Shown: positions 4,462 to 60,044, numbered from the stretch's first letter. The stretch is 64,000 nt of DNA from Candidatus Hadarchaeota archaeon (GCA_964621445.1 CAZUNO010000015.1:9636-73635); one strand, 5' to 3'. Made by a program: numbers and translations. The notes: a model not told the origin generated them from the letters alone.

Positions 4462-5693
4462 TTGGGGAATTCAAAACGTCGGTCATTTCTGAAACTCCCA
4501 ACTTTCTCTTAGCCCTTATCCTCGCAATTATCATATCGCTCGGGGTATTTTTGCCCTCGACCCAGGCCCAGCAGGAAGAGGAGATATCGGCCTTCGTCAT
4601 GGCTCATTCCCAATGGATATGGGGCAACCCCTTCCGGGTCCTCTTCTCCCGTGACCCCCTGTTTACCTACTCCCTGTATCCTCTGCCTCCCTTCATATCC
4701 ATGGCCGAAAAATCCAAGCTGGATAGGATCTACTTCCCCAGGAAGAGGGAACTGCTGGTGGATAACTACGACCTGATGGTCTTCCATGATATAAGGACCG
4801 GGTTCACTCCCAGACAGATCCAGGACCTGGATTACGCCTTCCGGGAGGCCGGCATGACCGCTATGTGTGGGCTATGTCTGGGCTGGGACTATGCCTGGGA
4901 GCCCACCATACTCTCCGAGCTGCTTCCCATAACCGAGCACGGGAGCGTCAGTCCTTACTTCAGGGGCTACACGGTTAAGTTTAGGAGGGACAGGCCACCC
5001 GTATTCCTCGATTTTCTGGATATGGGTATCGAGAATGTGGTGGGAACCCAGTTCTGTGATATGAAGGCCGACCAGGCAGCCACCGTCTGGGGAGACATAG
5101 AGCCCTGGGGAATCCCCTGGATGGTTTCCTGGAGGCCCGGGGGTACCGATGCGGGCATGCAGTGGGTGGTATCCCACACCTTCGGGGGATGGTGGGACGA
5201 GAACGAGAACCCCTACTCCTACGACGTATGCACCAACATGATTTTCTATTCACTGGGCCGTGACCTGGTGGAGAATATCCCTGGTAGAAGACGTGCTAGG
5301 GGCATGTTCGCCGATATCCAGACACAAAAATCCATAATCGTTTCCATGATGGAGTGGGCCGCCGATTTCGGGGCCGACACCACCTCACTTTCGGACTCCC
5401 TGGAGAATATCGAAGGGGAGATGGAAGTCGCGGTGGAGGATTACAAGAAACAGGACTACGCCTCGGCCATCTCCTTCCTAAAAACCATGTCCCAGAGGGT
5501 AAAGAACATATCGTCCCGGGCAGTGGAGCTAAAGGACGGGGCGCTGCTCTGGGTATATATCTCAGAATGGCTAGCCGTGTCTTCAGCGGCTCTGATATCC
5601 GGCCTGGCTGTTTGGACCCTTATGGTACGCAGGAGGCTGTATAAGGCAACGCCCACCACGAGACTCGAGTCCGATGTAAGATTTTCCAATTAA
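4462..5693 (+). CDS. Surface protein family paralog 1 (GATase-like domain, stalk, conserved TM tail); signal peptide split by 1-nt frameshift at ~4503
   Basis: YFPR..L..YD, FGADT, ALLWVYISEW...LMVRRRLY; TTG-MGNSKRRSFLKLPT at 4462 is one frame off the h-region FLLALILAIIISLG. Confidence 0.85.
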
Positions 5694-5711
5694 CCAAGGG
5701 AAGGAAAGCTC

Positions 5712-5987
5712 GTGAAACCTCTGCTTTACATTCCCGCCGGCGCCATCGGTGACACCAGCCCCTTCTCCATCACCAGGAAGCCGGTCAACATCACTACCAA
5801 ATCATGTTTCGTGTTTTTCGAGGACGAGAATTTCCACTACGCGGTGGAGTACGAGAAGCCAGAACCGGGAAAGGGCGGCCTGGAGAACCTGGCCAGGATC
5901 TCGCCCTGGGGCCCCTCCCAGATATCGGGCGCCAAGAGGATTGGAAGTGAGCGGGGCCTGAGGAAGGTACAGATGCAGGCCAGGTAA
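5712..5987 (+). CDS. Small hypothetical protein or gene fragment
   Basis: 91-aa ORF with purine-rich upstream; no family recognised. Confidence 0.3.
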   Translation: MKPLLYIPAGAIGDTSPFSITRKPVNITTKSCFVFFEDENFHYAVEYEKPEPGKGGLENLARISPWGPSQISGAKRIGSERGLRKVQMQAR

Positions 5988-6032
5988 GGAGAAATATTAG
6001 AACCCGCCCTCGCCACATCCCGCGGTGCGTCC

Positions 6033-8211: not shown

Positions 8212-9504
<1,293 letters not shown>

Positions 9505-9549: not shown

Positions 9550-10854
9550 ATGGAACCCTCACAAAGCGGTGGCTTTTTGGATGGTAATGACTGGCTCCTG
9601 GAAATGATCCGGGCAGAGATCGTGCAGAGAAGGCAGGAGGGGTGCCGGGTTACCGGCATCGAGGAGGAGATCGGGGACGACACTTCAATCCAACGGTTAA
9701 GAGAAACCTGGAACCGGCTTCAAGGTATGGAACCCACACCGGACTTTCCCTACCTGGAACCATCGGACATGGAGTCTATAGTGGAGGAGACCGGGCATCC
9801 GACCAGGGATTTACCGATCAAGTGGGATGAGCTTAAGGATAGGATACATGCTGCCTGGCTGGGCCGCTGTGTTGGGTGCCTCCTGGGAAAACCGGTGGAG
9901 GGATGGAACAAGCGAGAGATCGAGGAATATCTAAGGAGCCAGGGCTCCTATCCCCTTGAGGATTACATCCCTCCCGCCGAAGGCCCGGGGCGAGCGAGCC
10001 CTCCGGAAGCATTAAGGGGAAATATCCATGGCATGCCACGCGATGACGACACCGACTACACGATCCTCGGGTTGCACATGGTGGAGAGACACGGTTTGGG
10101 GATAACCAGCCAGCAGATAGGTGAGGAATGGCTACAGAACCTGCCCTACAGATCGGTTTACACCGCGGAGAGGGCCGCATATAGGAACCTCGTCAACGGC
10201 CTGTCCGTCCCCGAAACCGCCACCCATTACAATCCGTACCGGGAGTGGATAGGCGCCCAGATCAGGGCGGATATCTGGGGCTATGTTAATCCGGGTAATC
10301 CGGAGGCCGCCGCGGAAGCTGCCCATGAGGATGCCAGACTGAGCCACGTCAAGAACGGTGTCTACGGCGAGATGATGGTGGCTTCCATGATAGCGGCATC
10401 TTTTTCTCTGGACGATCCCTTGGAGGTGATCAGAGCGGGCCTGGATTTTATTCCTCGGAACAGCAGGCTTAGCGAAGCGGTTAGGAGAGTCCTATCCTGG
10501 TCGGCTGAAAATGATGACTGGAGGGACTGTTGGTCCCTGATAGAGACCCGATACGGCCATTACCATCCCGTACATACCATAAACAACGCCCTAAACGTGG
10601 TTTGCTCCCTGCTCTACGGGAGGGACAGCTTCCAGAGGACTGTGGGCATCGCGGTGATGTGCGGCTGGGATACCGACTGTAACGGGGCAACCTCGGGATC
10701 CATATACGGGGCAATGAATGGCCTCTCGGGGATAACCGATCGCTGGCTATCCCCTCTGGGGGACAGGGTCAGGAGCCACGTGAGGGGTTTTCAGGAATCC
10801 AGGATATCTGAGCTAGCGGAAAGAACCTACGCCCTGGTGGAGGAACCGGGATGA
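9550..10854 (+). CDS. ADP-ribosylglycohydrolase family protein
   Basis: DDDTDY, EWIGAQIRAD, SHVKNG.YGE, GWDTDCNGAT. Confidence 0.92.
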   Translation: MEPSQSGGFLDGNDWLLEMIRAEIVQRRQEGCRVTGIEEEIGDDTSIQRLRETWNRLQGMEPTPDFPYLEPSDMESIVEETGHPTRDLPIKWDELKDRIHAAWLGRCVGCLLGKPVEGWNKREIEEYLRSQGSYPLEDYIPPAEGPGRASPPEALRGNIHGMPRDDDTDYTILGLHMVERHGLGITSQQIGEEWLQNLPYRSVYTAERAAYRNLVNGLSVPETATHYNPYREWIGAQIRADIWGYVNPGNPEAAAEAAHEDARLSHVKNGVYGEMMVASMIAASFSLDDPLEVIRAGLDFIPRNSRLSEAVRRVLSWSAENDDWRDCWSLIETRYGHYHPVHTINNALNVVCSLLYGRDSFQRTVGIAVMCGWDTDCNGATSGSIYGAMNGLSGITDRWLSPLGDRVRSHVRGFQESRISELAERTYALVEEPG

Positions 10855-15009: not shown

Positions 15010-16263
15010 TTGAAATGCGGAAATTCTGGCCAAATGGTCATCCTGATCCTGCTTTCGGTTCTAATCTCCCTGTCCATGTCCTCGGCCAAAGTGGACCCGG
15101 CGACCATGAAGATCAGGATAATATGCATAGGGGAGTCCTATGTCCCCGAGACCCGGCTACCAATCCTCCTTAAGGCCGATCCTAGGATAGCCTACCAGGC
15201 AATACCCGCTAACTGGGCCGAATCCACCTTCCAGGTGATTGGAGGGGCGAGCAGAAAGGACGCCCTCAAGTTCATACGTCAGTACATGCCCCGGAGCTAT
15301 GGCTTATTCGTGGAGAACTATGACATTATACTGCTATCGGATTTCGAGGTTGACGTGATTACCGAGCAGCAGTTCATGTGGATGGAGAGGGGGGTGAGGG
15401 AAGGAGGCATGGGCCTGGGCAAGTACGAGATGAACTATGACCCCGGGCATTTCTCCACTTTCGACCGCTTCCGGGCATCGGCGGTGTACAAGGCGGTCCC
15501 GGCCGACCTGAAGAGCGGGTCCCTCATGAGGAGGCCGCTGGAGGGTATATACGCGGTGAAGATGCCGGACACGGGGGAGCCCCATCCCATGCTGGACCTA
15601 CCGGAGATGAGGCGCTACAGGCTTCTCGGTTCGGGCGATTACGGATACGAGACACCCCGGACGGGAGCTACCGTGGTGGCCCGTTTCAAACCTAACGACC
15701 AGGACGCCATGATTATCTGGGATTACGGCGATGGGCGTTCCCTTACCTGCGTACCTGGCCTGGACAAGATAAGCGGGGCGGCAATCACAGACTGGCCCTT
15801 CGTGGTCGACTTCTGGATCAACCAGATGTGGTACCTGGCCGACCTAGCTATTCCCGATGACATACAGATGGTCCACACCCTCAGGTCGGATTCCCTGACC
15901 TACGTAAACGAGAGGAGCCTGGCCACCTCGGTCATCCAGTTCGTGGAGAAGTTCGGGGCCTCGACCGATAAGCTCTACGGCACCCTGGACGAGGTGGATG
16001 AGATAAAGGCCGAGTCCGATATGCTTTACATGGAGGGGAGGTATGAGGACAGTCTACAGAAGCTCGAGGAGGCCTATGCTGCCCTTGGCGATCTTTCCCG
16101 GCAGTCGGTAGAGGTCAAGGAGAGGGCCCTATTCTGGATCTACACCATCGAGTGGCTGGCGGTGAGCGGCACGGCCATCCTTACCGGGGTTATCGTTTGG
16201 AGCCTGATGGTGAGAAGACGCCTCTACCACGAGGTGGAGATCACCAAAGCCGAGGAGAGTTGA
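15010..16263 (+). CDS. Surface protein family paralog 2
   Basis: Signal peptide, YMPRSY..YD, FVEKFGAST, ALFWIYTIEW...LMVRRRLY. Confidence 0.9.
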   Translation: MKCGNSGQMVILILLSVLISLSMSSAKVDPATMKIRIICIGESYVPETRLPILLKADPRIAYQAIPANWAESTFQVIGGASRKDALKFIRQYMPRSYGLFVENYDIILLSDFEVDVITEQQFMWMERGVREGGMGLGKYEMNYDPGHFSTFDRFRASAVYKAVPADLKSGSLMRRPLEGIYAVKMPDTGEPHPMLDLPEMRRYRLLGSGDYGYETPRTGATVVARFKPNDQDAMIIWDYGDGRSLTCVPGLDKISGAAITDWPFVVDFWINQMWYLADLAIPDDIQMVHTLRSDSLTYVNERSLATSVIQFVEKFGASTDKLYGTLDEVDEIKAESDMLYMEGRYEDSLQKLEEAYAALGDLSRQSVEVKERALFWIYTIEWLAVSGTAILTGVIVWSLMVRRRLYHEVEITKAEES

Positions 16264-19363: not shown

Positions 19364-20617
19364 CTAACGGCTGAATTTGGTTATCCCGACGTCTCGATAA
19401 AGGTGTTTTCTGGCCATCAACGTCCACAGGACGTAACCCGAAACCATCAACGCGGATGTGGTGACAAGCCATTCGATGGTGTAGACCCATAGAAGGGCAA
19501 TGCCTCTCAGGTCCCTTGCCATTTTATCCGCTTCTTGAAGGTCCTGAAAAACCCGTGTCATCGTTTTTTCGCATTCAACAAATTCTTGGTTCAGGTACTG
19601 CTCCTCGGCCATATGGACTTCGTCTTCGAGTTCCCATATGGCCTTCTGGACCTTTTCTGTATTGGCTCCGAACTTATCGATGAAATCGCTTAGCGAGATA
19701 AGCACTGCCTTTTTCGCTCTGAATTCGATGAAGCTAGACTTTAGGCGATGAAATACCTCTACATCCTGGATGAGAGATCTTCCCGTGGAGTAGAGGATGA
19801 TGTTGGTGAGAATGTCTGGAGCGTATATATTATCATTTGATGTCTTGGGATAGCGGAAGAAACCAAGTTCCTTGTGCATGGCGTCACCAATTGTCATCGT
19901 GGTCCCCTCCCCGTATTTCCAGGTGATTAGATATGGAACATCTTCATTCCCCGGGAAGTTCCCCACCTGCCAGGCGAGAATTGTAGATCCGTCCCGTGGT
20001 ATCAATAACCTCGATTCACTGCAACCAACTTCTTCAATTCCATATGGAATATAGGGAGTCAATACCGGGTCGGGGAAGTCCTTGTTGACACGTACTGTGA
20101 AATGATTATATGTGCTCTCTCCACCGCCTCCCCGCGCAACGACTGCTGGCGCATCATTGGGGAATGACTGTTGCGTGAGGGAGTTGGCCCAAGCCTCATG
20201 TATTTGGGAAACTATACTGAAGACGCTTGCATCATTAAAACCCCCCGCTCCTTCCTCTATAACGTCGTGCATCCACTTGTCCTGCTGTGTCGTGAACAGG
20301 TAGTATTCCGGAGAAGTCAAGAGTATATAGTCAAAGCTCTTCATCTCCTCATAAGTTCGAGGAAAGTACTGTCGTATGTACTTGATCATGGTACTCGCTC
20401 CACCTCGGATGTAGTCACCTCTAGCTGGAATTGCCACCATGTCAATGAGGGGTTCGTCCCTCAGAAAGTGGGGAAGTTGGGCGTTGCGATCCAGGATCTG
20501 CCCGGTGAGCATCACTTTGATCTGTTCTCCTCCTAGACAGGAGGGTGAAGAAATCAAAATAACTCCCGATAGCACCAGTATCAACAAAGACCAAAATTGG
20601 GAGGATGGATGATGCAA
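19364..20617 (-). CDS. Surface protein family paralog 3
   Basis: YFPRTY...FD, FIDKFGANT, ALLWVYTIEW...LMARKHLY. Confidence 0.9.
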   Translation of the reverse strand: MHHPSSQFWSLLILVLSGVILISSPSCLGGEQIKVMLTGQILDRNAQLPHFLRDEPLIDMVAIPARGDYIRGGASTMIKYIRQYFPRTYEEMKSFDYILLTSPEYYLFTTQQDKWMHDVIEEGAGGFNDASVFSIVSQIHEAWANSLTQQSFPNDAPAVVARGGGGESTYNHFTVRVNKDFPDPVLTPYIPYGIEEVGCSESRLLIPRDGSTILAWQVGNFPGNEDVPYLITWKYGEGTTMTIGDAMHKELGFFRYPKTSNDNIYAPDILTNIILYSTGRSLIQDVEVFHRLKSSFIEFRAKKAVLISLSDFIDKFGANTEKVQKAIWELEDEVHMAEEQYLNQEFVECEKTMTRVFQDLQEADKMARDLRGIALLWVYTIEWLVTTSALMVSGYVLWTLMARKHLYRDVGITKFSR

Positions 20618-20678: not shown

Positions 20679-21947
20679 TTGGGTTTACCTGTACCGCATA
20701 GAGCATTGAATAGGAGATTCCTCATATCATTTACCTGCCTGTTACTGGTGTTCGGCCCGAATGCTCTGGCGGCCGAGCGGATCGACCTCCTGCTCATAGG
20801 CCACGTGGTTTCCTCCTACAACCCGGTGACCACATTCCTGGATCCCGACCCTTCAGTCAGGTACACCATAGTCCCCACCAGCGAGAGCCACGCGCTTCCC
20901 CTAAACGAGGATGATGCCAAGAGGTACGTAAAGCAGTACTTCCCTCGGACCTATGAAGACCTTGCCGATTACGACTTCCTGATGTACTCCATACCATACA
21001 TTCTGCCCCTAACCCTGAACCAGATATCCTGGCTGAGGGAGGTCGTTTATTCCGGCGAATGCGGCGCACTCACGGATCAGGGAGGGCTGAGGCTGGACGT
21101 GAAGTACGCCCAGTTCTGGGTTAATTCCGGCATGAGCGAGGTGTTCGCCAATGATGCGGAGGCCGTGTTGCAGACGGGAAAGGTGACCTACAGCGACTCG
21201 GGGTACAGGCTTTCCGTTAAGCCGGAGGCCCAGCCCCAGGTCCTGGAACCCCTGATTAGCCTGGGTCTGGAGGACATCCCGGCCCTGGGCCTCTTCCACA
21301 CCGTTCCCAGGGAGGGAGCACGGATAATAGCTGAGGCCATGGGCAACTTCCCGGACATACCCGGGTACTCGAAGAGCGCCCCCTGGCTCATGTACTACCA
21401 GTACGGAGAGGGGTCCTCTTGGACCCTCTGCGACAACTTCGTCAATCCGTTCTGGTGCGGCATGTATTACGGGAGCGTGCAGGGCGACCTGCAGACCGAT
21501 GTTCTGATGAACATCATATGGCCCACCGTGGGGTGGGAGCTTCCCAGGGACGCCGCGCTCGTTCACAGGATACGCCTCCGTTTCAGGGATTACATAGAGG
21601 AGAGGAGTCTCCAGATCTCGGTGGTGGAGTTCGTGGACAGGCTTGGAGCCAATCTACTGCCGGTGGAGCAGGTCCTGGATACGGCAGACCAACTGAAGGG
21701 AGAGGCCGAAGAGCTTTACCTGGAACAGAGATACCAGGATTGCGAGGAGGAGCTTGACGGGGCATTCGCAAAAATTGAGGAGGCCGGCGGGCTGGCCCTG
21801 GACCAGAAGAAACGGGCCCTGCTCTGGGTGTATATCATAGAGTGGGCCGCGGTGACCGGCGCCCTCATGATCTGCGGCTTCGTTATCTACACGGTGATGA
21901 TCCAGAGGCGTTACTACAGGGAGATTCGCACCACTCGTACACAGTAA
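20679..21947 (+). CDS. Surface protein family paralog 4
   Basis: YFPRTY.DL..YD, FVDRLGAN, ALLWVYIIEW...VMIQRRYY. Confidence 0.9.
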   Translation: MGLPVPHRALNRRFLISFTCLLLVFGPNALAAERIDLLLIGHVVSSYNPVTTFLDPDPSVRYTIVPTSESHALPLNEDDAKRYVKQYFPRTYEDLADYDFLMYSIPYILPLTLNQISWLREVVYSGECGALTDQGGLRLDVKYAQFWVNSGMSEVFANDAEAVLQTGKVTYSDSGYRLSVKPEAQPQVLEPLISLGLEDIPALGLFHTVPREGARIIAEAMGNFPDIPGYSKSAPWLMYYQYGEGSSWTLCDNFVNPFWCGMYYGSVQGDLQTDVLMNIIWPTVGWELPRDAALVHRIRLRFRDYIEERSLQISVVEFVDRLGANLLPVEQVLDTADQLKGEAEELYLEQRYQDCEEELDGAFAKIEEAGGLALDQKKRALLWVYIIEWAAVTGALMICGFVIYTVMIQRRYYREIRTTRTQ

Positions 21948-30539: not shown

Positions 30540-31775
30540 TTGAGCTTGAATTCAAGGACCATCCTACTCGCACTGCTCCTGATCACGATTCCGGCAGCGG
30601 AGGCCATAACCGAGCTCGATGAAGGCATAGGATTGATGCTGCTGGGCGACGTGGGCAGGGCCGGCTCGCCGATAAACAACTGGCTGGACCGGGATCTAAT
30701 CATCGACTACTTCGAGATCCCCATGGCCCAGAAATCGATGGTCAAGGAGGACCTGATCAAGTACACCAACCTGTATTTTCCCAGGACCCTCGAACACCTG
30801 GTAGATATCTATGATATGATAGTGATTTGCGAGGAGGAGGAGCTCTTCGCCTGGTACACCTCGCCACGACACCAGGAAATCATGTACCGGGCGGTGAAGG
30901 ATGAGGGCGTGGCCCTGTTCAACTCCCTGCCCCACGAACACTACGAGGTCCAGGAGTGGGCAGACACCAGGCTATCCGAGACCATGCCCCACGACTACGA
31001 GAAGCTGTACATCAAGGTCATGAGGTCATGGACCCTGGAGATAAACGAGGATCCAAACCTCCCCCCGGTCTTCACCCCCTTCATCGAGCTGGGTATAGAG
31101 AAGTATCAGGGCCCCCATCTGGGCCGAATATACAAGAAGCCCGGGGCTACCACCTGGGCCCGGGCCGTGCCAATCAACGCGCCTTTCTTCATCAGCTGGG
31201 AATACGGCGAGAAGAAGGCAAGAACCTCGGTGACTGGCCACGACCTCGACGAGGCCTGGTGGGGTTCGACCTACAGGGGGAGTACCACCGAGAACCCATG
31301 GGGAGGGGACCTATTCCTGAACATCGTATACTGGTCGGTGGGAAAGGATCCAATTACAGATATATCCATCGTCCGGGCAGTCAGGGATGAATATGCAAAC
31401 TTCCTGATGCAGAGGGGAGTGACCCTGTCCCTGGTGGACTTCATAGACGACTTCGGAGCCAGCGTGGCCCCTCTGGAGCAGGAACTCAGGGAGATCACCA
31501 AAGGAAGGGCTGTGGCAAAGCGTCTATATTTCGAACAGGACTATGACGGGGCCTTGCAACATCTTCAATCAATGTTTAAGACCATGGAGAATATAGAAAC
31601 GGAGGCCCTGGAACTCAAGAAAAAGGCCTTCCTCTGGATATACGTAATAGAATGGTCGGTGGTAACCGCCTCCTTGATGGTGGTGGGCTTCATCACCTGG
31701 TCGTTAATGGTAAGAAGGCGACTTTACAGAAAGGTTGAGGTTACCAGAACGCAAAGCTCGGGCAAAACTGGATAA
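30540..31775 (+). CDS. Surface protein family paralog 5
   Basis: YFPRT..L...YD, FIDDFGAS, AFLWIYVIEW...LMVRRRLY. Confidence 0.9.
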   Translation: MSLNSRTILLALLLITIPAAEAITELDEGIGLMLLGDVGRAGSPINNWLDRDLIIDYFEIPMAQKSMVKEDLIKYTNLYFPRTLEHLVDIYDMIVICEEEELFAWYTSPRHQEIMYRAVKDEGVALFNSLPHEHYEVQEWADTRLSETMPHDYEKLYIKVMRSWTLEINEDPNLPPVFTPFIELGIEKYQGPHLGRIYKKPGATTWARAVPINAPFFISWEYGEKKARTSVTGHDLDEAWWGSTYRGSTTENPWGGDLFLNIVYWSVGKDPITDISIVRAVRDEYANFLMQRGVTLSLVDFIDDFGASVAPLEQELREITKGRAVAKRLYFEQDYDGALQHLQSMFKTMENIETEALELKKKAFLWIYVIEWSVVTASLMVVGFITWSLMVRRRLYRKVEVTRTQSSGKTG

Positions 31776-39806: not shown

Positions 39807-40673
39807 ATGCGGGATTCACTTGGACTTGATGCCAGTCTGGGAAGCATAATACTCATCGTCCTGATCAGCTCCGCCCTGGTGGTATTTACATTGGCCCAGG
39901 AGGAGGTGGAAAGCCCGGTAACCATCCTCAAGAACCAGTATCCCAGTAGGATTTACAGTCAGGCCTCGGTGACCACCAGGGAGAAGATGGATTTCTCATT
40001 TAGCGTGGCTGCTAGGAAAAAACTAGCCAGGCTGGGTATTCAATACGTTACCCTGGTGGAGACCGATCCCGTTCCCGGACCCCTAAACCCCTCCTCCTCG
40101 TGGGAGGGTATTCTGGGAAACATTAGCGCCCTTAAGGCTTTGACCAAGGAGTCCGGGAACCCTTACCTGGAAACTGAGGTCAGGTCCATCGAGGTGGAGC
40201 ACGGAAACTGGTCCTACGAGGGCGTTTTCTATGATTTCCCGGTGGTTAGATTCTATGCCAGTCCGGAGTGCAGTGACCAGGTGCTAACCTCATTCCTAAT
40301 GCTGAAGAATGAGACCCATGTGCTTTACTTCGAGGGCATATCGGATTTCTATATCCACCGACTGGGTCGCTACTACGGAATCTCCTTGCCCCAGGAGGAG
40401 AGGAACCGAAGTTCCATCGACCGGATGAAGATACGGAGAAACCAAGAGGTGGCCACCTACTCATCGGCCCAGGACGCCCCGCCTGGGGCCCTGCCCATAA
40501 CGGAGGTCCCCGAAAAGGGAAGAGTTGTTTTCGACGATCTGGAGGAACACGACACCATTTCCATTGACTTCACCATAGAGATACCCAGGAGACCATCCGG
40601 GCTGTCCGCTCACCTGATCAGGATATATGCGGACGGCCAACCAGTTGAAATGAGGTTGAACCTAGTGGAGTGA
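39807..40673 (+). CDS. Secreted/membrane-anchored hypothetical protein
   Basis: N-terminal hydrophobic segment; 4-nt overlap with next gene. Confidence 0.75.
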   Translation: MRDSLGLDASLGSIILIVLISSALVVFTLAQEEVESPVTILKNQYPSRIYSQASVTTREKMDFSFSVAARKKLARLGIQYVTLVETDPVPGPLNPSSSWEGILGNISALKALTKESGNPYLETEVRSIEVEHGNWSYEGVFYDFPVVRFYASPECSDQVLTSFLMLKNETHVLYFEGISDFYIHRLGRYYGISLPQEERNRSSIDRMKIRRNQEVATYSSAQDAPPGALPITEVPEKGRVVFDDLEEHDTISIDFTIEIPRRPSGLSAHLIRIYADGQPVEMRLNLVE

Positions 40674-41650
40674 TATGGATGAGATCGAGATTGCTGTCCT
40701 TGGTTTTGTTCCTGCTAGTACTTTCGCAGGCCGGTGTATGGGGGGAGATGTTTGAACCTCTGGTGGTTGTCTACGCCGGGAGGATGGATTACGGAAACGC
40801 TCTGGTCGAAATAGTAAATGAGACCGGGACCAGGGCAAGGCTTGCTGAAAGCGACGCCACACTCCGTGGCCTAATCAGTCTTCCCCAGGTCAAATGCGTT
40901 GTAATAGCTGCCCAGAACCCATCGGACTTCGTTTTTCTGAGGGAATTTTCCTCGGTGCTCAGGAATTACTTCCTGGAGGGAGGGTCCCTGGTGGGCATCG
41001 GGCCCTGCTGTGGGCCCGATCTCGAGGAGCTTTCCGGGTCCCTGTTTCCGTTAAGAGGTAATGCCACCAAAAAGGGCAGGCCCATTGATGGGGGCTTTGG
41101 CTCGGAATATGTTAGATGTGGAGATCTTGAACCGATAACCGGGAGTCTGCCATCAAGGTTCGTGATTACCCAGAGCGAGTATTCATATCGAGCGGGAAGC
41201 AGCGGTCCTGTAGATCCGGTTAGCGGACTGGGCGAAACCAGGGTGCTTTTTAGGGACCGCTCCCAGGGTGCGCCCATGGTGGTAACCCTTGAGAAAGAAA
41301 AAGGAGGTAGGACGGTGTCCATGCCCGGATGTCGGGTGGCGAACGTGGAACGCCTACCCTTCTACTGGGGGAATTTGGTTGAGAACCAGAAATTTAGACT
41401 CCTGCTGGCGGGGGCCGTTAACTGGGCCATGGATGGCTGCAATCGTTACCATTTCCTGGCGGCCAATGCCGAAAGTGATCTCAGTGAGGAGAGGCAGAGA
41501 CTCCAGGAACTGGTTGATGAGGGAGAGAGTCTGAGGGAAGACGCCCAGCGGAATAGAATGATGCTTCTTGGGGCCCTATGGTCTCTGGGGCTGGTTTTCC
41601 AGGGCTTTCTGGTCGTCAAGTATATTTTGCCGGCTTTCAGGCAGAGCTAG
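40670..41650 (+). CDS. Surface protein with GATase/ThuA-like domain, short stalk and C-terminal TM
   Basis: Signal peptide, L..Y..EGGSLVG, GGR.V, AVNWA, coiled coil, TM. Confidence 0.75.
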   Translation: MIWMRSRLLSLVLFLLVLSQAGVWGEMFEPLVVVYAGRMDYGNALVEIVNETGTRARLAESDATLRGLISLPQVKCVVIAAQNPSDFVFLREFSSVLRNYFLEGGSLVGIGPCCGPDLEELSGSLFPLRGNATKKGRPIDGGFGSEYVRCGDLEPITGSLPSRFVITQSEYSYRAGSSGPVDPVSGLGETRVLFRDRSQGAPMVVTLEKEKGGRTVSMPGCRVANVERLPFYWGNLVENQKFRLLLAGAVNWAMDGCNRYHFLAANAESDLSEERQRLQELVDEGESLREDAQRNRMMLLGALWSLGLVFQGFLVVKYILPAFRQS

Positions 41651-46236: not shown

Positions 46237-46252
46237 ATTTTCGGCGATAATT

Positions 46253-48010: not shown

Positions 48011-48242
48011 GTCTGTGCACCGGGTGCACGGCCTTGATATCTCTTTTTCTCTACCTGCTGGATCATGGTCTGTCTGTTCGTTCACACTTTTGCTCATTTA
48101 GAAGCGTGTTAAGGTAGCTGGACCCTGTGAATGGGTGATGGAGATGAGATAGGTCTTCTTTTGTCGGGTGGGCTCGAATCCTTTCAGCTTGCCCAGATCG
48201 CAGAATAGCTAGGCCCCAAATTGTATACTTTCCTATACTAAA

Positions 48243-48506
48243 AGAAAGGGCAGAATTGTGGACTACCAAGTGGTTAATGATCTTAGCGAATTGAAAGCTG
48301 AACCGGGTTTCAGTATTGATATTGGATTAATAACTCTCCTGCAGTCCAAACTGTCGTTGCTAACTCTTCTTAGAGGAACTGACCAGATTGAAGACATGGA
48401 CTACCATTTGTTAATTTGGTATAATGAGAGCTTCAGCGGTTACAGTAACCTTACAATCCTTAAGGTTAATCTAGAAAGGAGAAACGACTGCGCCATCTGT
48501 AACCCG
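48243..48506 (+). pseudogene. C-terminal fragment of ThiF/E1-like enzyme
   Basis: VDY...LKAEPG..IDI.......K..L..LL...RRNDCAICNP zinc-binding tail; no adenylation domain upstream. Confidence 0.5.
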
Positions 48507-50002
48507 GCGCATTGGTCAGAGTCACTTCAAAAATTGTTGACCGAGGCAGCCTTCTGTATGATCAGTTTGATCCATGAAGCAGGCCATCTGTATCTGCTAT
48601 CTAGGATCTCCTCGCTGGCGCAGTTAGAGACTCAGAGAGATCGCTGTGCAGGTAGTTCGTGCCTGTCATCGGTCCTCACGGTATATCGAATGTTATCTCC
48701 ACAGCGATTCCGCTGCCAGAGAACCCAAACGAAGATACCGTGACGCGGAATGGGGGAACTCCATAGGGGAGGAGCGATATGATCCTTTGGGAGCACTCGG
48801 CGTTGAGTACAGATCCAGTTCTCAACTATTACTCCGCCAGTACTCAGCGAGTGCCCACACTTCTCAGATCTACTGTGAATCCTAATACGAAGGCTTATCC
48901 CCCAAGCCCAAGCGAATCATAGCGTATAGATACTGCTCTCCCCCCTCCTTTCGGTTGATGGTATTTTCGGCGGATGACCCTACACCGTACTAGTTAACCC
49001 AGTTTGGTGTAATCCACATTACACAAAACCAGCTCACGGGCCTATCCGCTGCCGCATCGCTCTGCTGCTGTATCTGTCGGGGATCCGGGCAAAGGGTATC
49101 GGACCTCCCCCTGGGACCCATCGCCGCCCCCTGGCTTCCGAGGATCACCCCGCGGCGTATCGCCGAACTGCCCCCTATGCGTACGTGTCTGGCGTCGGTT
49201 TCTCTCGCTGGTTTTCCCGCTGGCCGGTCGGTGGCTTTCTCGGTCGACGCATCGGTGACAACTGGATGAGCTCTGATCGACACTTAATGCTTATTGGGGC
49301 GGGAGAACAGCACCTTGGAGTACTTCAGATAGGGGAGAAGAGGGAGGAGCTGTTTCAGGAACCAAGTTTCGCGCACAGATAGGTCACGAAAACGAGGCAG
49401 GCGATATCGAAGGGCGGAAAGCCGAAAACATTTGCTACTCCGAGGTCTCCCAGCGTATACATACCCTTCTTCCCTCACCACCCCCACAGTCGAGCCTGAG
49501 CGAACTCGATAGACACGAGAACCCTACACGGCAGAATGGTGATAGCAGAAGAGGGCCGATGATAGCGATCTCCGGTAGCAATTCATCCAGTTCTCGAGTC
49601 TGGTCTAGAAGCCTTGCTGGGTCTGCTTGGCGTGGCCGCCCCGAACGGTGTTGGTCTTTGTGTAATGGCGATTACACCAAGTCTGTTCAGAATCTAGGTA
49701 GGAGGTCATTCTATGGGAACAGTCCCAAATTCGTTGTCCCTTCAAGGCATCTCTCCTGTCTATGCTAGTCAGCCTTATACGGGTCAATATGAGGATACTC
49801 GCAGCCGTAGAGCGAGGAGATGTTCTAGCGTCAATAGAGGGAAGATAGGATTCGAGGATTGTTCGACTAGGGGGTCCAGAGTTGCTAGATCGATGGCGAG
49901 ATGGAGGGTCGCCCCGATATAGCTACCGCCCTAGATATGGCTTGTCTAGCCTTCGTTTGGTAGCTTGATTCTCACAATACCTGAGACGGAGAATTCGTTG
50001 GA

Positions 50003-50540
50003 ATGGCCATTACGGACACTGAGAGTGACGGTCTCCTTGAAGTCGCTCTCGACTTTGAAATATGCCGAGGAGCGCGCTGCAACATCGTCCTGGATGAGAA
50101 AACCCGTTTCCTGATAGCGAATGAGATAACCGAGCAGCGTAGCACGCTGGAAACCCGGATGGTTATGCAGAAAGCCAAAAAGCAGACCAAGAACGCTAAA
50201 CCGTGGGTTATGATTAGCGACGGTATGAGTGCCTATCCGTCCGCTATACGACAGGAATTTGGCGATGACACCCCAACACATCGGCAACGTGGGCATCCGA
50301 GACCGGATAAACAACAACGTGCTGGAACGCTATCATGGCACGTATAGGGAGCGAGATAAGGTTATGTGTGGTATGGAAAACAATATTCCGGCCAGGGAGA
50401 TGAACGAAAACATCAGGACATACTACAACTTCGTCCGAGGGCATACGGCTCTGAACGGACGGACATCCGCCGAGGAAGCCGGGATAAACCTGTCTCTGGG
50501 ACGCAACCGATGGATGAGCCTGCTCCATCAGGCTCTCTAA
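50003..50540 (+). mobile_element. IS6-family DDE transposase remnant (5'-truncated, frameshift at ~50275)
   Basis: D.KTRFL.A, ISDG..AY..AI, NN..ER.HGT.RER.KV, YYNFVR.H.AL.G.T.AE.AGI. Confidence 0.85.
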
Positions 50541-50696
50541 TCCTTTTTCTTTACAGGAAAAGAATAGGAAGAAACGAAAGCTTTATTAATTGGCCGCCTT
50601 ATTACAATCAAGAGAGAAAAACAGACGGCAGGAGCAAAGCTCTGTCCTGTAAAGGGCAGCAGGATTTCCCTGTCTGCCGTCTGGAACTCAGGCTTT

Positions 50697-51200
50697 TTAT
50701 CTTTTTAATTTCTCTATTTCGCCGTCAAGTGAAATATATTTGTCTGCATTCAGTTGTAATGTCTTTGCTGTAGAATGGTCAAAACCAGCCACTTCAACTT
50801 GTTTCCCCATTTCTTTCACTGCTTGAATGGCTGGTAGGAAATCTTTATCCCCTGTGGCAACTACAGCAACATCATACATTTTTTTATGGCCACAAAGTAG
50901 TAGTTTAGTGGCCAAAGCAATATCAACACCTTTTTCGTAAAATTTACCTTCTTCTTTTTGTAGTTCGGTTTCAACTACTTCATAACCTATATACCTTAAT
51001 TTGTTGTAAAAATTTGTTTGCTTTTGTACCGGGGGCTCTTTCACACTGACAAAAATATATGGCCTGATAAGCTTACGTTCAGATGTTAAAATTTCTTTTA
51101 GCTTTTCGTAGTCAATTTTTATTCCTATATCATTGGCTGAATGAAATAAGTTTGAGCCATCAATAAAAATCATTATCTTGTCTTGGGTATCTAACGCCAT
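50697..51200 (-). CDS. NYN domain (LabA/DUF88) putative RNase
   Basis: IFIDGSN, EKGVD..LA, TGD.DF.P......G..V, L...AD; AT-rich. Confidence 0.92.
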   Translation of the reverse strand: MALDTQDKIMIFIDGSNLFHSANDIGIKIDYEKLKEILTSERKLIRPYIFVSVKEPPVQKQTNFYNKLRYIGYEVVETELQKEEGKFYEKGVDIALATKLLLCGHKKMYDVAVVATGDKDFLPAIQAVKEMGKQVEVAGFDHSTAKTLQLNADKYISLDGEIEKLKR

Positions 51201-52407
51201 ACAACCATATCTAACTAATGTATATGTATAATAAGTTTTACCACGTCACTATTCACGACCCGCATTAGACAGCCACTTGTCACGCCCCGAATTTATAGAC
51301 AGAACCGAAGCTATTAGTCAGCCAAGCCACCAAGGCCGAAGCAAATGAGGTGACGTCATTCTTCTACATAAGGCGACAATGCTTGCACCTCGTCCGCTGA
51401 CAAATCACGTTGTTGGATATGCCTGAATAGAAGGTTTAGCTTGGGACCAATCTGGCCAAAGGTGTCGATATCACTGTGGTTGCTTGGATCTAGCGGTTGC
51501 CTCCCCCCTGCTTGGCGGGGGCACCGGAGCTTCACATCTCGGAATCTTGGAGTACCCTGCAACTATGGGCGCGTAGGACATGTAGGGTGGGGCTACCTTC
51601 CTTCGAAGTTCATTGCACGGCTTTTGAATGGGTCGGGGGGCAAAACCTCTTTTCTCCGCCGCCCTTAAACGATCTTGATTACTAACTCAGTCAGCCGTTC
51701 GATTAGAGATCCATAGTACAGTACCGGGAAGACCATCACAGCCAAGAGAGATATCAACAGGGATAGGCTTCTCTGACAAGTCTATCAACCCAGATAGAAT
51801 GAGCAGAGATAGAGCGTAAGCCGGAACCAAGTATATGAAGCGAGGTTCGCCGGGTTCACCGGGATAAAGGAAGATTGAGGCTCCCACTCTATCGGTGTAG
51901 CTATGTCTAGGACTTAACTCTTGTTCCAATACATTTGTCGGAGATGAAAGGTTGGCGGGTTCTATTTCGATGGTAAGACAGCGCTTCTGTAATCTGGGTG
52001 ACTTCAGTCATCGGTCATTCTGAACGAACATAAAAGAGACCACAGGTATGAGGCGTCAAGTTAATCGTATTATGTTGGCAATGAGTTTAGGCGGATAAGT
52101 CCCCCAGATTGTAGTGCAAGTTGGTTCCATGTGAATTGGAGAAGTCTATACGATGACCGACACAATCTAGGTAAAGGAACATCATTCAGTTATGATCAAT
52201 ATCAAAACCTTGACAAATATGATGATCTCCGCAGTCTACAGCTTTTCTCAGCCCGATATATAGCCGAGACCCAGCGACCCGGGGGACCCCCTATCCCAGA
52301 TATGCTTCGCAGGGCCAAGGACCTGATGCTAGGCAATTATGACTATATCACCCTGCATTTGCATTAGCTTATGCTTACTTCAAGTATAGAGAGAAGAAAC
52401 CAAAAAA

Positions 52408-52734
52408 TTACTCTGTTTCTCTGTCTTCTGGTGCCTCCAGTTTCTGTTCGATGTGTTTTACAGTTTCCTTATCTATGAGAACCTTTACATGTTCTCCATC
52501 ATATAGGTACAGAGGTTTCTTTGTTTCAGCTGCTAACTGGACGATTTCCCTGGGTACTCTCGACACCGGAACGGACAGCATCAACAAACCTTTTTCATAG
52601 ACGCCTACTGTGATTTGATCAAGGTGCCTCACCTCAAGTCTATCTCCCAAACGGTAAGACAACTTGTTCTCTATGTGGGTCAATATTTCGCTATCACTCT
52701 CGGTCACAGAACCATCTCCATCGAAAAGTTCCAT
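52408..52734 (-). CDS. Hypothetical protein
   Basis: 108-aa ORF with plausible composition. Confidence 0.55.
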   Translation of the reverse strand: MELFDGDGSVTESDSEILTHIENKLSYRLGDRLEVRHLDQITVGVYEKGLLMLSVPVSRVPREIVQLAAETKKPLYLYDGEHVKVLIDKETVKHIEQKLEAPEDRETE

Positions 52735-52860
52735 CTGGCTGTCATATAGGTCTTGGGCCTTACCTGAACCTGTTCATGGTGGTTCCTAACGGTAGCTTCA
52801 AGACCAGTATCAGGATGGCTATCCCCACCGCTATGGCGACAACCCTCCAAACCAACAATC

Positions 52861-53508
52861 CTAGCCATCCCCCTCGGGAAACTCCTCAGATTCCTCCTCT
52901 GGAGCGGCCTTCTCGGCCAAGCTGTCAAGATCCAGATCGTCCGGCATCTGTATGTCAGGGGGCATTATCTTGACCCTTATACCCATCATGCCCTGCTTGA
53001 GGTCGGCGACGGCTAGTCCTTCCAGAACCTGGTTCGAGGGGTTACCGCATTTCTTTATCGAGCCGTCCACAAACCTCGCCGTTCTTGCATAACTACCACG
53101 AATCTTACCGGAGACGGTGATTTCACAGCCCTGGGCGCCGGCGTCCATTATCCTGTTCAGGGTGCCGTAGGCGGATCTTCTGAACCGTCTCCCTGCCTTT
53201 AGCATTGCCGCCAGGCGATTCCCCATCACTTGTGGGCTGAGCTCCGGAACCGGTACCTCCTCCACCTCTATCTGGAGATTATCAAACCCGTATCTCTCCT
53301 GGAGGACCTTGGTCAAGCTCTTTATGTTCCTTCCTCTACGCCCGATCACCAGACCTGGACGCTCTGCATAAAGAACCATCCTAGTCCTCAGAGCGGTTCT
53401 CTTTATGTCCACGCCACTGAACTTGGCCCTCTGCAGCTTTCGCTCCAGAAACTCTGTAATATCTGCCTTTCTTATGCCTCGCTCAACAAATAGTCTTTCT
53501 CTAGCCAA
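52861..53508 (-). CDS. rps3: 30S ribosomal protein S3 (uS3)
   Basis: RPGLVIGRRG KH motif, P.L, AGAQGCEI.VSGK, G..G..VKIMPP; TTG start after GGTGA. Confidence 0.96.
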   Translation of the reverse strand: MARERLFVERGIRKADITEFLERKLQRAKFSGVDIKRTALRTRMVLYAERPGLVIGRRGRNIKSLTKVLQERYGFDNLQIEVEEVPVPELSPQVMGNRLAAMLKAGRRFRRSAYGTLNRIMDAGAQGCEITVSGKIRGSYARTARFVDGSIKKCGNPSNQVLEGLAVADLKQGMMGIRVKIMPPDIQMPDDLDLDSLAEKAAPEEESEEFPEGDG

Positions 53509-56819: not shown

Positions 56820-57293
56820 TCAGTTGGAGAAATATCCTTTGGGGTGGAAGTGATAGAGATCGAAGTCTAAGTTTTCGGCTTGCTCCATGAGCATTCTCTT
56901 GGCCTCCTGCCCTTCGCTGGATCTTCCTTTGAAAGGGTTCTTATTGGAAAACACGGCCAGGTACTTACCGGTTGACGGACATATCTTCTCCCTAAATTTC
57001 CATAATTCTCGGTGAAAATAATGATAAGAGACATTGTTCTTGTTCTTGATGAACTTTATCTCTAGCGCATATTCCAGGCTACGCGGTTCGAAACGTTTGG
57101 TGCCGTTCTCTATCTCGCCTCTAACTCCTTCCTTGAATATCCCGATGTCTATTAGAAAGTTTTCTCCCTTCTCACCTAGGTTGACCTCGGTATGGACGGA
57201 GCTTCTCAAGGAAGAGTTAACGATTTTATCGATGAATTCTTCCTTATACTTGGTGACATTCCTTTTTTCAAGCTCGGCTTCCGGTCGACTTGG
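56820..57293 (-). pseudogene. PD-(D/E)XK nuclease-like protein, 5'-truncated
   Basis: VHTEV...IDIGIF...ALEIKFIK; frame open upstream to stops at ~57295 with no clear start. Confidence 0.55.
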
Positions 57294-57468
57294 TTACTAA
57301 AGCGGCTATTAACGTCATGTTGCCTCCGCCAGTGGACAACTGCTCTTCCGTTCCTCTAGATCATTCTGTGCATTAACCATCAGGCCGCTGGGCATGGTGA
57401 ACACCATGCGGCTGTGGGGGAACTTCTAGGAGTTCTTTGCTGGATTTGCCCGTGCAAAGCCCTATCAA

Positions 57469-58701
57469 TCATTGACCGAACCGGGTGACCTCCACCTCTC
57501 GATATAGCCTCCTGCGGACCATGACCGTGTAAAGCACGAACCCGATAATGGTCATGGTCCCGGTTACCGCGCACCACTCCACAACATAGATCCACATGAG
57601 TGCCCGGTCCTTGACCTTGACCGCCCTATCATGCATCTCTTTGATGCTGCGAATTGCCTTATCCATTGCCGAGGAAGCTCTGGAAAGATCCATATCGATG
57701 TAGTATCTCTCTGCTTTGGACTCCTCCTGGTCAATTTCTTTCAGCCCGTTGAGTAGAGGAGCGGTATTGGCGTTGAACCTTTCAGCAAATTCGATAAGTG
57801 ATAGTACGAACTTCCTCTGCAGGCGAAAAGAGGAAATCTTTTCCCTCACCGCCTTGTCAAGAGCCATGTCCTCTATGCGTAAGCCGGCCGGAAAGTAGAC
57901 CAGGGAGGCAAAGACCTGACCTGCATACTCCCAGACCCCGCCCAGGGAGAAGGCCCAGTCCGTCCTTCCGCCCTAGTCATGGACAAATGCCACCGAACAT
58001 CCCTCACCCACCTCCATCTCCGCTATGACCGGACGGCCCGGAGGGTTTCTATCGGTGCTGGCCACCGCGGTGGCGCCCTGTTTGTCGTAGACCCTGTTAT
58101 GAGCCGCCAGCCATGCTTCCTTCCAGGGGATATTCTCGGTGAGAGGATGGTCCGGAATTTCGATACTCAACTTGAAAGGACCGGTCGGTCCCCAATCTTT
58201 CTTGTCCAGTGCACAGGAAACTGGGAGAACATCACCAATCGCGGTCTCACCCCAACTCAAATCCTGGCCCCAAGGCCCGGACACGCCACCGAAAGAGGAG
58301 GGATCATCCGCCATCAGGAACCCCAATCCTTGATCAATGACCGCATTCCTTGACCAGCGAAGGAACCTACCATCTATGTGGTGCTGCTGGGCTGCGGTTA
58401 TGCATATGACATCGAAGTTATCCCTCACCCTTTTCTCGGTACGTGGCAGGTAAAGGCGGTAATACCTTTTTGATTTCCTGGTCCCTATGATGGCCACCTC
58501 GCTGGGGACCGGGTAAATGTCTATTCTCGGGTCATCGAAGAAGAAGGTGGCTGCAAAACCTCCTTGGTTGAAGGCGTCCCCGATATGGAGAAGCCGAATC
58601 CTACCCGTCTCGGGATCCACCCTCCCCTGGCAGGGGGTGACCAGACCCAGAACCAAGATAAGAACTAATCCCACCCAGTTTCTTTTTCTTGCCGCATTCA
58701 A
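57469..58701 (-). pseudogene. Surface protein family paralog 6, single in-frame TAG at 57973-57975
   Basis: ORFs 57973..58701 and 57469..57867 are in one frame: ...AFVHD*GGRTDWAFSLGG...; family motifs YLPRT, FAERFNANT, ALMWIYVVEW...MVRRRLY. Confidence 0.85.
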
Positions 58702-60044
58702 TCCTCTATCGCCCCTTGCAACATATGCGTCGATCTCACCGTATGATACAACCTCCGCCTAACCATTACCGACCACAGAAAAACCCCAGCGATCATGGAG
58801 GTTCCGCTGACCACCAGCCACTCGATTATGTAGACCCAGAGCAGGGCCCGGTTTTTGAGCTCAACGGCGTTCTCCTCGACCCGATCCAGTCCTTGATGAA
58901 CTCGCTCATATATCTCCAGGGCCTCCTCGAACTTCAAATCAAGGTAAACCGGCAGGGCGCTCTGAGCCAGGTCCTCCACCTCATCCAGTTGCTCCACCAG
59001 GTCCAGGGTATTTGCCCCGAAAGAATCGCAGAACTCGATCAAACTCAAAACCAAAGATTTCCGATTCATGACGTCGAACATGCTCTGCCTTAATCGATGT
59101 GCCAGCTCAACGTCCTGGGGCACGGGACGTTTATCCATATAGATCATCAGGTTCGCCCCGAAGTCGAGAGCGTATTCCCAGGGATCGGTGCGAGTACACA
59201 TGCTGTGGGACTGCCCAGGCTCCGAACTGGGTCCGATTATCTCTCCGGTGACGGCAAAAGTCCGCGCCCCACTTTCAACTTCGTCGGTCACCATCGCCGG
59301 GTGACGAGAGAAGGAAGGGCTCTCTATATGGGCCAACATCTGGGCTCCCGGTTTGATCTTGACCAAGTTGTGGTGGAAATTTGTCATGAACGGCTGCCTA
59401 CGATCCCAGGGGAGGCTCCCCATGAACTGGTGATCGGGCTTATCTATCTTCATGAAGAGGCGGTACTTGGGCTTCATTATGTAGGTATTTTCCACGCACT
59501 CCACAGGAAGTAGTTTACCGACCGAGTTCCCTCCCCAGGAAGGCCTGCCGAATGCACCTCCAAAGCTTTCCCACCCCCCGAACATGGTTAGCCCCGTTCC
59601 CCCTTCTTCCGTTCCCCGGGCAATCATCTCTATGTAGCGGTCACCCAGCGCCAACGTGTTGGCATTTGCCAACACCACGACATCGAAACTGGAAGTCAGG
59701 TCACGGTAGGTCCTGGGCATGTAAAGACGGATGAAACGGTAGACATCGGTCTCTTTGCCGGCCCTCATTGCCGGAGCCGAGGCGAATCCAGCCCAGTCCC
59801 TCAGAGTGGCCTGTACGAAGCTCATTCTGAACAAAGGATCGGATCTCATCCACCAGAAGGGGGCTGAACGCGCCAGACACCCAACGTACAACACGCCGAC
59901 CCTGCCCTCCGTTTCTGCTGCGGGAGTTGTGGGAAGGGCGATGAAGACCATGGCCATTACCAGCAATGACCTGACAAGCAAGGTCTCACAGGACAACCCG
60001 GATGCCGAAACTCGCCTGCCACCTAATCCGACCCATCCTTGCAT
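58698..60044 (-). CDS. Surface protein family paralog 7
   Basis: YMPRTY.DL..FD, M.GGWESFGG GATase-like motif, FCDSFGANT, ALLWVYIIEW...MVRRRLY; start uncertain. Confidence 0.9.
   Translation of the reverse strand: MQGWVGLGGRRVSASGLSCETLLVRSLLVMAMVFIALPTTPAAETEGRVGVLYVGCLARSAPFWWMRSDPLFRMSFVQATLRDWAGFASAPAMRAGKETDVYRFIRLYMPRTYRDLTSSFDVVVLANANTLALGDRYIEMIARGTEEGGTGLTMFGGWESFGGAFGRPSWGGNSVGKLLPVECVENTYIMKPKYRLFMKIDKPDHQFMGSLPWDRRQPFMTNFHHNLVKIKPGAQMLAHIESPSFSRHPAMVTDEVESGARTFAVTGEIIGPSSEPGQSHSMCTRTDPWEYALDFGANLMIYMDKRPVPQDVELAHRLRQSMFDVMNRKSLVLSLIEFCDSFGANTLDLVEQLDEVEDLAQSALPVYLDLKFEEALEIYERVHQGLDRVEENAVELKNRALLWVYIIEWLVVSGTSMIAGVFLWSVMVRRRLYHTVRSTHMLQGAIED

Follow-up and report, generated by a model that had tools for sequence, protein, structure and literature searches.

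The window analyzed here, a stretch of 64,000 nucleotides from an assembly of Candidatus Hadarchaeota archaeon (GCA_964621445.1, CAZUNO010000015.1:9636-73635), carries seven dispersed paralogs of a membrane-anchored surface protein in which diverged heads are joined to a strongly conserved C-terminal anchor. An earlier reading made from the DNA alone (hereafter the sequence-only reading) had proposed seven such paralogs sharing a Y-x-P-R motif, an [FL][GN]A motif and a tail of defined consensus, and translation and joint alignment bore this out: seven look-alike paralogs lie at the places given, with 23-31% overall identity to copy 1, and the Y-x-P-R motif, the A of FGA, and the W, Y, E-W, G, M, Y and T of the tail are invariant among them. 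Copy 2 (15010..16263, plus strand) is intact, its likely start being the ATG that gives MVILILL..., and it has counterparts at 64% identity in G001 and G003 and at 55% in G002, all of them in a different local setting. Copies 3 (19364..20617, minus strand) and 4 (20679..21947, plus strand; RR-type n-region, NRRFLIS) are intact and divergently oriented. Copy 5 (30540..31775, plus strand), also intact, was the one used for the structure model, and its orthologs lie in conserved synteny. Copies 6 (57469..58701, minus strand) and 7 (58698..60128, minus strand) stand in tandem; copy 7 is intact and its translation contains the GGWESFGG sequence that had been noticed. The neighbors named at the same time were also present, i.e., copy 1 is followed by an Amidohydro_2 gene and copy 2 by a GH4 gene, and copy 3 has a URO-D-like gene at its side.

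Copies 1 and 6 deserve a separate description. Copy 1 had been placed at 4462; the paralog is there, but a start at 4462 is one base out of frame and its translation contains stops, and the open frame, with a signal-like segment, runs from 4389 to 5693 on the plus strand. No ATG, GTG or TTG is found ahead of the TTG at 4551, and since this first canonical start falls inside the signal-like hydrophobic stretch, the start of copy 1 appears to be non-canonical or lost, and its true position is uncertain. Copy 6 is broken by an in-frame TAG at 57973-57975. In the 150 matched rows of the family (see below), in-frame stops are TAG in five, TAA in five and TGA in three, and because all three kinds interrupt other copies, we take the TAG of copy 6 as ordinary gene decay and not recoding. 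A pyrrolysine reading of this codon was rejected on the same grounds, although the pyl genes were not searched. No 7-mer was common to 12 or more of 111 upstream regions, so that a shared upstream control element was not detected, and no RNA family of Rfam was matched in the window.

The seven copies are a fraction of a family of about 150 loci per genome. In the source assembly (G000; 3.21 Mb in 89 contigs), a model built from the seven copies gave 150 scored matches out of 175 candidates. In a separate search of all 21,466 stop-to-stop open reading frames (ORFs) of at least 60 amino acids, 167 ORFs matched the family: 117 span the model and are considered intact, and 50 are fragments. The fragments correspond to 32 loci, of which 9 are cut by contig ends, 16 are disrupted and 7 are partial. 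These ORFs cover 172,860 bases, 5.4% of the assembly, and are found on 50 of the 89 contigs. Most stand alone (93 singles), and the rest form 24 pairs, 3 triples and one run of five, with family genes adjoining each other 64 times vs 14 expected. When the 3,154 ORF-genes were clustered all against all, this was the largest family, with 150 members, followed by 46 sulfatases, 45 ATP-binding cassette (ABC) ATPases, 41 URO-D-like proteins and 32 GFO/IDH/MocA oxidoreductases; 17 xylose-isomerase-like barrels and 15 PF12831 flavoproteins are further large families. In this archaeon and its three known sister species, one gene in twenty encodes a surface protein of this family, which makes the family the dominant feature of the cell surface of the lineage.

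The expansion had been regarded as lineage-specific, and the wider searches agreed. Among 40 other genomes selected as relatives, the family was present in all three of the same GTDB family (127-242 first-look candidates each), and it was absent from one genome of the same class and from the 36 other archaeal genomes searched. The GTDB phylum comprises only five species genomes, and in these the tail-only model found 147, at least 150, 137, 93 and 0 matches, i.e., four of the five carry the family. A search with the tail peptide pattern in 185,579 species genomes returned 127 stretches, 121 of which were confirmed relatives, and the 76 loci that were kept all belong to three records of metagenome-assembled genomes, two named Candidatus Hadarchaeota archaeon and one uncultured Thermococci archaeon. 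Against 1.84 billion representative proteins, the tail-only profile gave 411 matches at E ≤0.001, 371 of them at E ≤1e-10. The window DNA was found in DNA runs labelled microbial mat, two of which, from one study, contain 0.94-0.97 of the words of positions 15010-21947; small shares of this segment were also found in hypersaline-lake DNA runs, and no RNA run was listed as containing it. The literature, searched here and below by titles and abstracts, held nothing on this family in a Hadarchaeota, hypersaline or microbial-mat context, no paper on Hadarchaeota sulfatases, and only unrelated work on GATase1-like membrane proteins in archaea.

In the type-I membrane proteins of this family, a Sec-type signal is followed by an extracellular head and a three-helix bundle, and then by a single membrane helix with a basic tail. 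A hydrophobic N-terminal segment precedes the head in 115 of the 117 intact copies, a twin-arginine-like motif is found in only 7 of 111 copies, and the basic cytoplasmic tail has about 15-20 residues. The type-I topology, with head and bundle outside, follows from the combination of the N-terminal hydrophobic segment with the Arg cluster located after the C-terminal helix. The AlphaFold2 model of copy 5 (predicted local distance difference test score, pLDDT, 90.3; predicted template-modelling score, pTM, 0.83) consists of an N-terminal helix that corresponds to the signal, an alpha/beta domain of the class I glutamine-amidotransferase-like type (residues 28-264; 30627..31337, plus strand), and helices at residues 273-303, 308-329 and 333-396, the third of which runs unbroken into the membrane segment. 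The juxtamembrane three-helix bundle is encoded at 31362..31613 (plus strand), its helices 1 and 2 being joined by the FGA(N/S) turn, and the anchor at 31614..31772 (plus strand), where K..A.LW.Y.IEW is followed by a variable mid-helix and then by G...W.LM.RRRLY..V..T.

That the tail is conserved above the rest of the protein had been suggested from the seven copies, and the comparison of all 117 intact copies confirmed it. The median pairwise identity fell from 0.50 in the helix plus tail to 0.26 in the stalk and 0.21 in the head, and the information content reached 2.3-2.7 bits per column at columns 381-420 vs 0.7-1.7 in most of the ectodomain. The consensus residue was kept at K373 in 105 of the 117 copies, at A376 in 113, W379 in 114, Y381 in 100, E384 in 113 and W385 in 113, and, at the helix end and in the tail, at G396 in 108, W400 in 107, M403 in 116, R406 in 105, Y409 in 107 and T415 in 110. 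The hydrophobic columns 379-404 precede the Arg cluster of R405, R406 and R407, and the mid-helix columns 386-395 vary freely. The conservation is thus located at both membrane interfaces, on all helix faces, and in the cytoplasmic tail. Codon usage gave no hint of an origin at the DNA level: identical residues shared the same codon at a frequency of 0.365 in the tail vs 0.345 expected from codon usage, and of 0.374 vs 0.365 in the head. Because codon sharing is no higher than codon usage predicts, the conservation of the anchor reflects selection on the protein and not a DNA element; gene conversion was rejected by the same test as a source of the tail conservation.

Selection acts strongly against N-glycosylation sequons in the ectodomain. 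In the 117 ectodomains 24 N-x-S/T sequons were observed vs 154.9 ± 11.0 in shuffled sequences (minimum 126), and the deficit is specific, since the reversed motif (140) and N-x-[AG] (206) remain frequent in the same ectodomains. The avoidance was observed in both parts (head, 21 observed vs 98 in shuffles; stalk, 1 vs 43), and 13 of the 24 surviving sequons fall at two adjacent columns in a tight turn. Furthermore, it was reproduced in 84 copies from sister genomes (15 vs 79.9 ± 7.9). The same genome treats its other exported proteins in the opposite manner: 83 other secreted-like proteins contained 265 sequons vs 155.8 in shuffles, and two families of membrane proteins described below, c6 and c12, contained 62 vs 25.1 and 23 vs 13.8, respectively; the figure for cytoplasmic-like proteins was 452 vs 522.5. 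Two genes for oligosaccharyltransferases of the STT3/AglB type lie side by side on opposite strands at G000 C32:7184-9560. The simplest reading, which these counts suggest, is that the ectodomain is exposed to the glycosylation machinery and that a glycan almost anywhere on it is harmful, and such exposure supports the outside topology. As one example of the cost of a glycan, the surface may be kept free for binding or packing. Sequon avoidance was not found described for any archaeal surface family in the literature searched, and a six-fold purge in an organism that otherwise enriches sequons on secreted proteins is an unusual and easily testable property.

We then turn to the head, which had been called GATase-like. 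Two lines of evidence support this assignment. First, the best Foldseek matches of the copy 5 head were 2gk3, 3soz and 3rht (E 1e-7 to 2e-6), and lower matches included the glutaminase domains of GMP and CTP synthases, the IFT52 N-terminal domain, GH42 and ThuA-like proteins. Second, a profile of 38 family members matched 2gk3 (E 1.5e-4) and 3rht (E 0.038), with motifs in common along the head. The outcome in Pfam was mixed: one of the six window copies tested, copy 7, exceeded the gathering threshold of the Pfam family PF07090 (GATase1_like; 28.8 bits vs 27); the other five gave no PF07090 match at E up to 1, and none of the six was recognized by NCBIfam. A search of the ESM Atlas with the head pointed to Planctomycetota clusters of PF07090 at 0.88, which we take as a lead only. 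The Cys-His-Glu triad is absent: in any head column of the 117 intact copies, Cys stays at or below 13% and His at or below 15%, and no other conserved nucleophile was found in the head columns, Ser reaching 50% at most. About a dozen polar or aromatic residues are conserved in the head, including R84, Y86, R89, D99, W118, W151, Y267, D270 and N274.

These conserved Arg, Tyr, Asp, Trp and Asn positions raise the question of whether the heads act outside the cell as enzymes whose active site is non-canonical, e.g., hydrolases or lyases acting on mat polymers, in which case the family would be a catalytic repertoire of 150 copies. Many enzymes are found within the fold superfamily, the genome is rich in glycan and sulfate-ester metabolism (the 46 sulfatases, 32 GFO/IDH/MocA and 17 xylose-isomerase-like proteins mentioned above), and sulfatase genes are enriched near family copies (see below). 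The missing nucleophile argues against catalysis, as does the median head identity of only 21%; several of the conserved residues lie at turns beside the stalk motifs and may be structural, and no paper assigning a function to PF07090 (DUF1355, COG5426) was found, the only one retrieved being the 2015 Pfam database paper. We consider a catalytic role unlikely.

The history of the copies bears on a different proposal, namely that the family forms a variable coat or decoy layer that evades viruses or grazers, or a purely structural component of the envelope. The very high copy number, the diverged heads, the many broken copies (the 16 disrupted and 7 partial loci) and the partial tandem clustering (64 adjacencies vs 14 expected) would agree with such a layer. 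However, no pair of intact paralogs exceeds 80% identity and only 14 pairs exceed 60%, so that recent duplicates are missing; there is no sign of gene conversion; and orthologs are kept in synteny. The copy 5 ortholog group has 47-66% identity in other assemblies, after which identity drops to 34% or less. In two sister metagenome-assembled genomes the copy 5 ortholog has the same flanking genes, with a VLRF1-like gene and an adenosine kinase gene on one side and genes for a protein with an NPCBM-associated domain and a DHH phosphoesterase on the other, and its identity of 55-58% is within the 45-71% range of these neighbors, i.e., the orthologs diverge no faster than the neighboring housekeeping genes. 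Moreover, exposed coat proteins are usually shielded by glycans, and such shielding is missing here. A coat or decoy function is hence improbable in our view. As to the age of the expansion, 67 of the 84 sampled copies from sister genomes have a counterpart of at least 50% identity in this genome, with a median best identity of 57.3%, and the median identity to the nearest paralog within this genome is 51.7%. Much of the expansion hence predates the split of the genera, although the margin is not large, and a slow birth and death of copies continues.

The sequence-only reading had drawn a parallel between the tail and the PGF-CTERM, PEF-CTERM and GlyGly-CTERM sorting signals, while noting that it matched none of them. 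The second statement proved correct: for the six window copies tested against NCBIfam, the best curated C-terminal sorting model was PVV_CTERM, with 17.0 and 13.7 bits vs a cut-off of 27, and no other CTERM model was matched at E up to 1. The parallel itself was not supported. PGF-, PEF- and GlyGly-CTERM signals are modular tags placed on many unrelated proteins, whereas the tail described here is confined to one architecture. Over all ORFs of the genome, the tail-only model gave 148 matches inside family ORFs, and the sole match outside them below E 0.01 was a relic of 81 amino acids (E 3.4e-5). Among the best 150 of the 411 matches worldwide, all proteins were of 468 amino acids or less and had the tail at their C-terminal end; the tail was not found in proteins of 721-2055 amino acids, which is weak evidence, and fused forms were not seen. 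Because the anchor is private to one architecture in this genome, among the 1.84 billion representatives and in the 185,579 species genomes, the tail is not a modular signal of the sortase type.

It could still be a new sorting signal for a dedicated exosortase or archaeosortase, which would cleave it and attach a lipid, as ArtA does with PGF-CTERM. The layout of an I-E-W motif, a hydrophobic helix and an Arg cluster agrees with this, and the genome has two exosortase-family genes, at G000 C19:27284-28000 (L041 1468-2304, minus strand) and at G000 C2:79898-80566 (L042 1444-2259, minus strand). Neither reaches the cut-off of a named subfamily: one scores 60.5 vs 100 for ArtC, and the other passes only the generic signature model TIGR04178. 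The latter gene has counterparts of 46-59% identity in all three sister genomes with the family, and none was found in the family-free genome, all of these being close kin; in G000 it sits directly upstream of a frameshifted family copy. This adjacency is not kept: in G001 and G003 no family copy lies within ±1.5 kb of the exosortase gene (in G001 the downstream gene encodes an oxidoreductase), and the G002 locus is too short on one side for a judgment. Since the family makes up 5% of the genes, a single adjacency in four flanks could readily arise by chance. In addition to the restriction to a single architecture, the helix is unbroken from the stalk, with no Ser/Thr/Pro-rich linker, and the conserved Y409, V412 and T415 lie 3-10 residues past the basic cluster. 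In a crude scan, about a dozen other large proteins ended in an I-P-E-P-like motif followed by a helix and basic residues, and these may be candidate clients, more ordinary ones, of the exosortase-family enzymes. A sorting function of the tail has therefore only a slight chance.

The genes that surround the family were compared by counting those within ±3 genes of a copy in 500 shift permutations that keep the clustering, with 12 families tested. Sulfatases (17 vs 8.6 expected) and c6 genes (9 vs 3.2 expected) were each reached in 3 of the 500 permutations, URO-D-like genes were found 13 times vs 7.8 expected (permutation fraction 0.046) and PF12831 flavoproteins 6 times vs 2.6 (0.04); ABC ATPases were not enriched (5 vs 8.7 expected). 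Given that 12 families were tested, these enrichments are suggestive only. Non-family genes located within 40 bp on the same strand were only 40; six of them were c6 genes, and the rest were nearly all different. The window contains one c6 gene (39807..40673, plus strand), whose product has an N-terminal membrane helix followed by a sequon-rich immunoglobulin (Ig)-like beta-sandwich, and one c12 gene (40670..41650, plus strand), whose product has a signal, a ThuA-like head, a coiled coil and a C-terminal membrane helix. The c6 cluster has 16 genes (17 by model) with no Pfam match; Foldseek found nothing clear for its fold, and VIA-align only generic Ig-like or pilin-like sandwiches (Z up to 8.9). 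Fifteen of the 16 c6 genes adjoin a family copy or a c12 gene. Two of the 10 c12 genes match PF06283 (ThuA-like), and c12 proteins share the build of the family (signal, head, coiled coil, membrane helix) with a different anchor sequence. The heads of c12 and of the family could not be linked by sequence, since profile-profile comparison aligned the stalk and helix only, at 21% probability. Of the 76 sister-genome loci, 11 contain c6 and 5 contain c12, and in L070, L075 and L109 the order is family copy, c6, c12. The c6-c12 module itself recurs, at 39807-41650 (plus strand) in the window and on contigs C10, C13, C45, C4 and C6 of G000. Adjacent family and c6 genes with the same direction occur, for instance, on contigs C25, C5, C32 and C65. 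The only recurrent candidate partner found is c6, and most family copies are without it. Given the Glu-Trp pair and the conserved ends of the helix, it is nevertheless reasonable to infer that the anchor would have a dedicated membrane partner.

The gene content of the genome is unusual for an archaeon, with many sulfatases, URO-D-like proteins and oxidoreductases and few classical importers. Because 45 of the 46 sulfatases have no signal-like N-terminus, they look cytoplasmic. The three sister genomes have 17, 21 and 36 sulfatases and the family-free genome has none, i.e., sulfatases accompany the family in each of the four genomes of the GTDB family, and the fifth genome of the phylum has neither. 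Importers are represented by no SBP_bac_8, one SBP_bac_5, one weak SBP_bac_1 and 6 BPD_transp_1 permease matches, which amounts to about three importers. With this setting, a function of the family in the capture or handling of substrates from the mat would agree. In archaea, the binding proteins of ABC importers are usually membrane-anchored, and the family might be suspected to be such a set of substrate-binding proteins, since its members are extracellular, membrane-anchored and numerous and canonical binding proteins are nearly absent from the genome. Yet ABC ATPases are if anything scarce near the copies (the 5 vs 8.7 expected given above), the genome has only the 6 permease matches, no transporter recurs among the tight neighbors, and the fold is amidotransferase-like and not that of a periplasmic binding protein, with no match to a substrate-binding protein family in Pfam. 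We regard this assignment as very improbable.

Taken together, the maintained paralogs, the interface-conserved anchor and the sequon purge point to a specific, selectable function over drift. The explanation that we favor, tentatively and at somewhat less than an even chance, is that the family is an unglycosylated binding repertoire mounted on a shared docking or assembly anchor. The heads would be bare, non-enzymatic binding modules that, being diverged, would recognize different ligands, most likely mat organic matter that is sulfated or derives from glycans, or glycosylated partners on the cell surface, for which c6 is an example. The invariant anchor would do more than hold the protein in the membrane, and it would not be a sortase tag: as a docking or assembly module, it would self-associate or plug every paralog into the same membrane or cytoplasmic factor. 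If the heads bind sulfated or glycan substrates of the mat, the family would show how an archaeon captures food without the usual binding-protein importers, and docking of the anchor to a common partner, if true, would amount to a new principle by which archaeal membranes are organized.

Several observations weigh against this explanation. The ligand, the partner and the oligomer are inferred only. The conserved head residues could form an unrecognized active site instead of a binding site or a structural core, and the conservation of the helix ends could partly stem from the demands of membrane insertion or of the lipid interface. Sequon avoidance reveals exposure and a cost of the glycan, but not the reason for that cost. 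Most copies are stand-alone genes with no recurrent operon partner, the enrichment of sulfatases is about two-fold and would barely survive a correction for 12 families, and the phyletic contrast rests on one family-free genome.

A more far-reaching version of the binding repertoire, which we consider a long shot, is that the approximately 150 unglycosylated ectodomains, each of differing specificity, plug into one membrane machine for uptake or signalling. The plug would be formed by W-x-Y-x-x-E-W on the outside and W-x-L-M-x-R-R-R-x-Y on the inside, together with the conserved Tyr/Thr tail. If true, this machine would be the missing route that feeds 46 cytoplasmic sulfatases in an organism with only about three classical binding-protein importers. 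We know of no archaeal system in which many receptors serve one machine.

Other features of the window are recorded here for completeness. Just upstream of copy 1, a gene at 3590-4243 (minus strand) has a weak Peptidase_C39-like match (E 0.0012, below threshold), and beside it a protein of 356 amino acids without a family match is encoded at 2542-3612 (minus strand). An ADP-ribosylglycohydrolase-family protein with about 100 unmatched N-terminal residues is encoded at 9550-10854 (plus strand), and is followed by an ORF of 463 amino acids without a Pfam match. The G+C content of the region 44000-52800 is 0.447-0.483 vs about 0.53-0.57 elsewhere, and only short ORFs are found at 48743-52861.

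Finally, the family can be placed beside known systems. With PGF-, PEF-, PEP- and GlyGly-CTERM signals it shares a C-terminal hydrophobic helix, an Arg cluster after it and a short Glu-containing motif before it; unlike these signals, its tail has no curated match, is not modular, continues the stalk helix and has conserved residues past the basic cluster. The SusD-like proteins of Bacteroidota are large repertoires of surface glycan-binding paralogs in glycan-degrading bacteria, and the present family may be likened to them, since it too has on the order of a hundred diverged paralogs at the surface of an organism with many genes for sulfatases and sugar-processing enzymes, although its fold is unrelated, it has no fixed pairing with a transporter or an enzyme locus, and it belongs to an archaeon with a single membrane. 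With respect to the head, the ThuA-like protein (1t0b), the GIFT domain at the N-terminus of IFT52 (5fmr) and the middle domain of GH42 (5xb7) have the same fold with lower Foldseek scores. The fold of the head is thus known, whereas the architecture, scale and properties of the family were not described in the literature searched. The closest relatives are the solved members of PF07090, i.e., STM3548 (2gk3), STM1381 (3soz) and a Planctomyces limnophilus protein (3rht), which have the same fold as the family head and a detectable homology to it, seen in the FP motif, the YD at a strand start, G-G-l, evLP and the eyG-G strand pair; the GGWES(F/Y) loop of 3rht is kept in copy 7. Those proteins are stand-alone domains of 245-259 residues. 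In the family described here, the domain follows a signal peptide and is continued by a three-helix bundle and by the conserved membrane helix with its tail; in contrast to the solved proteins, the family is present in about 150 copies per genome and is depleted of sequons.

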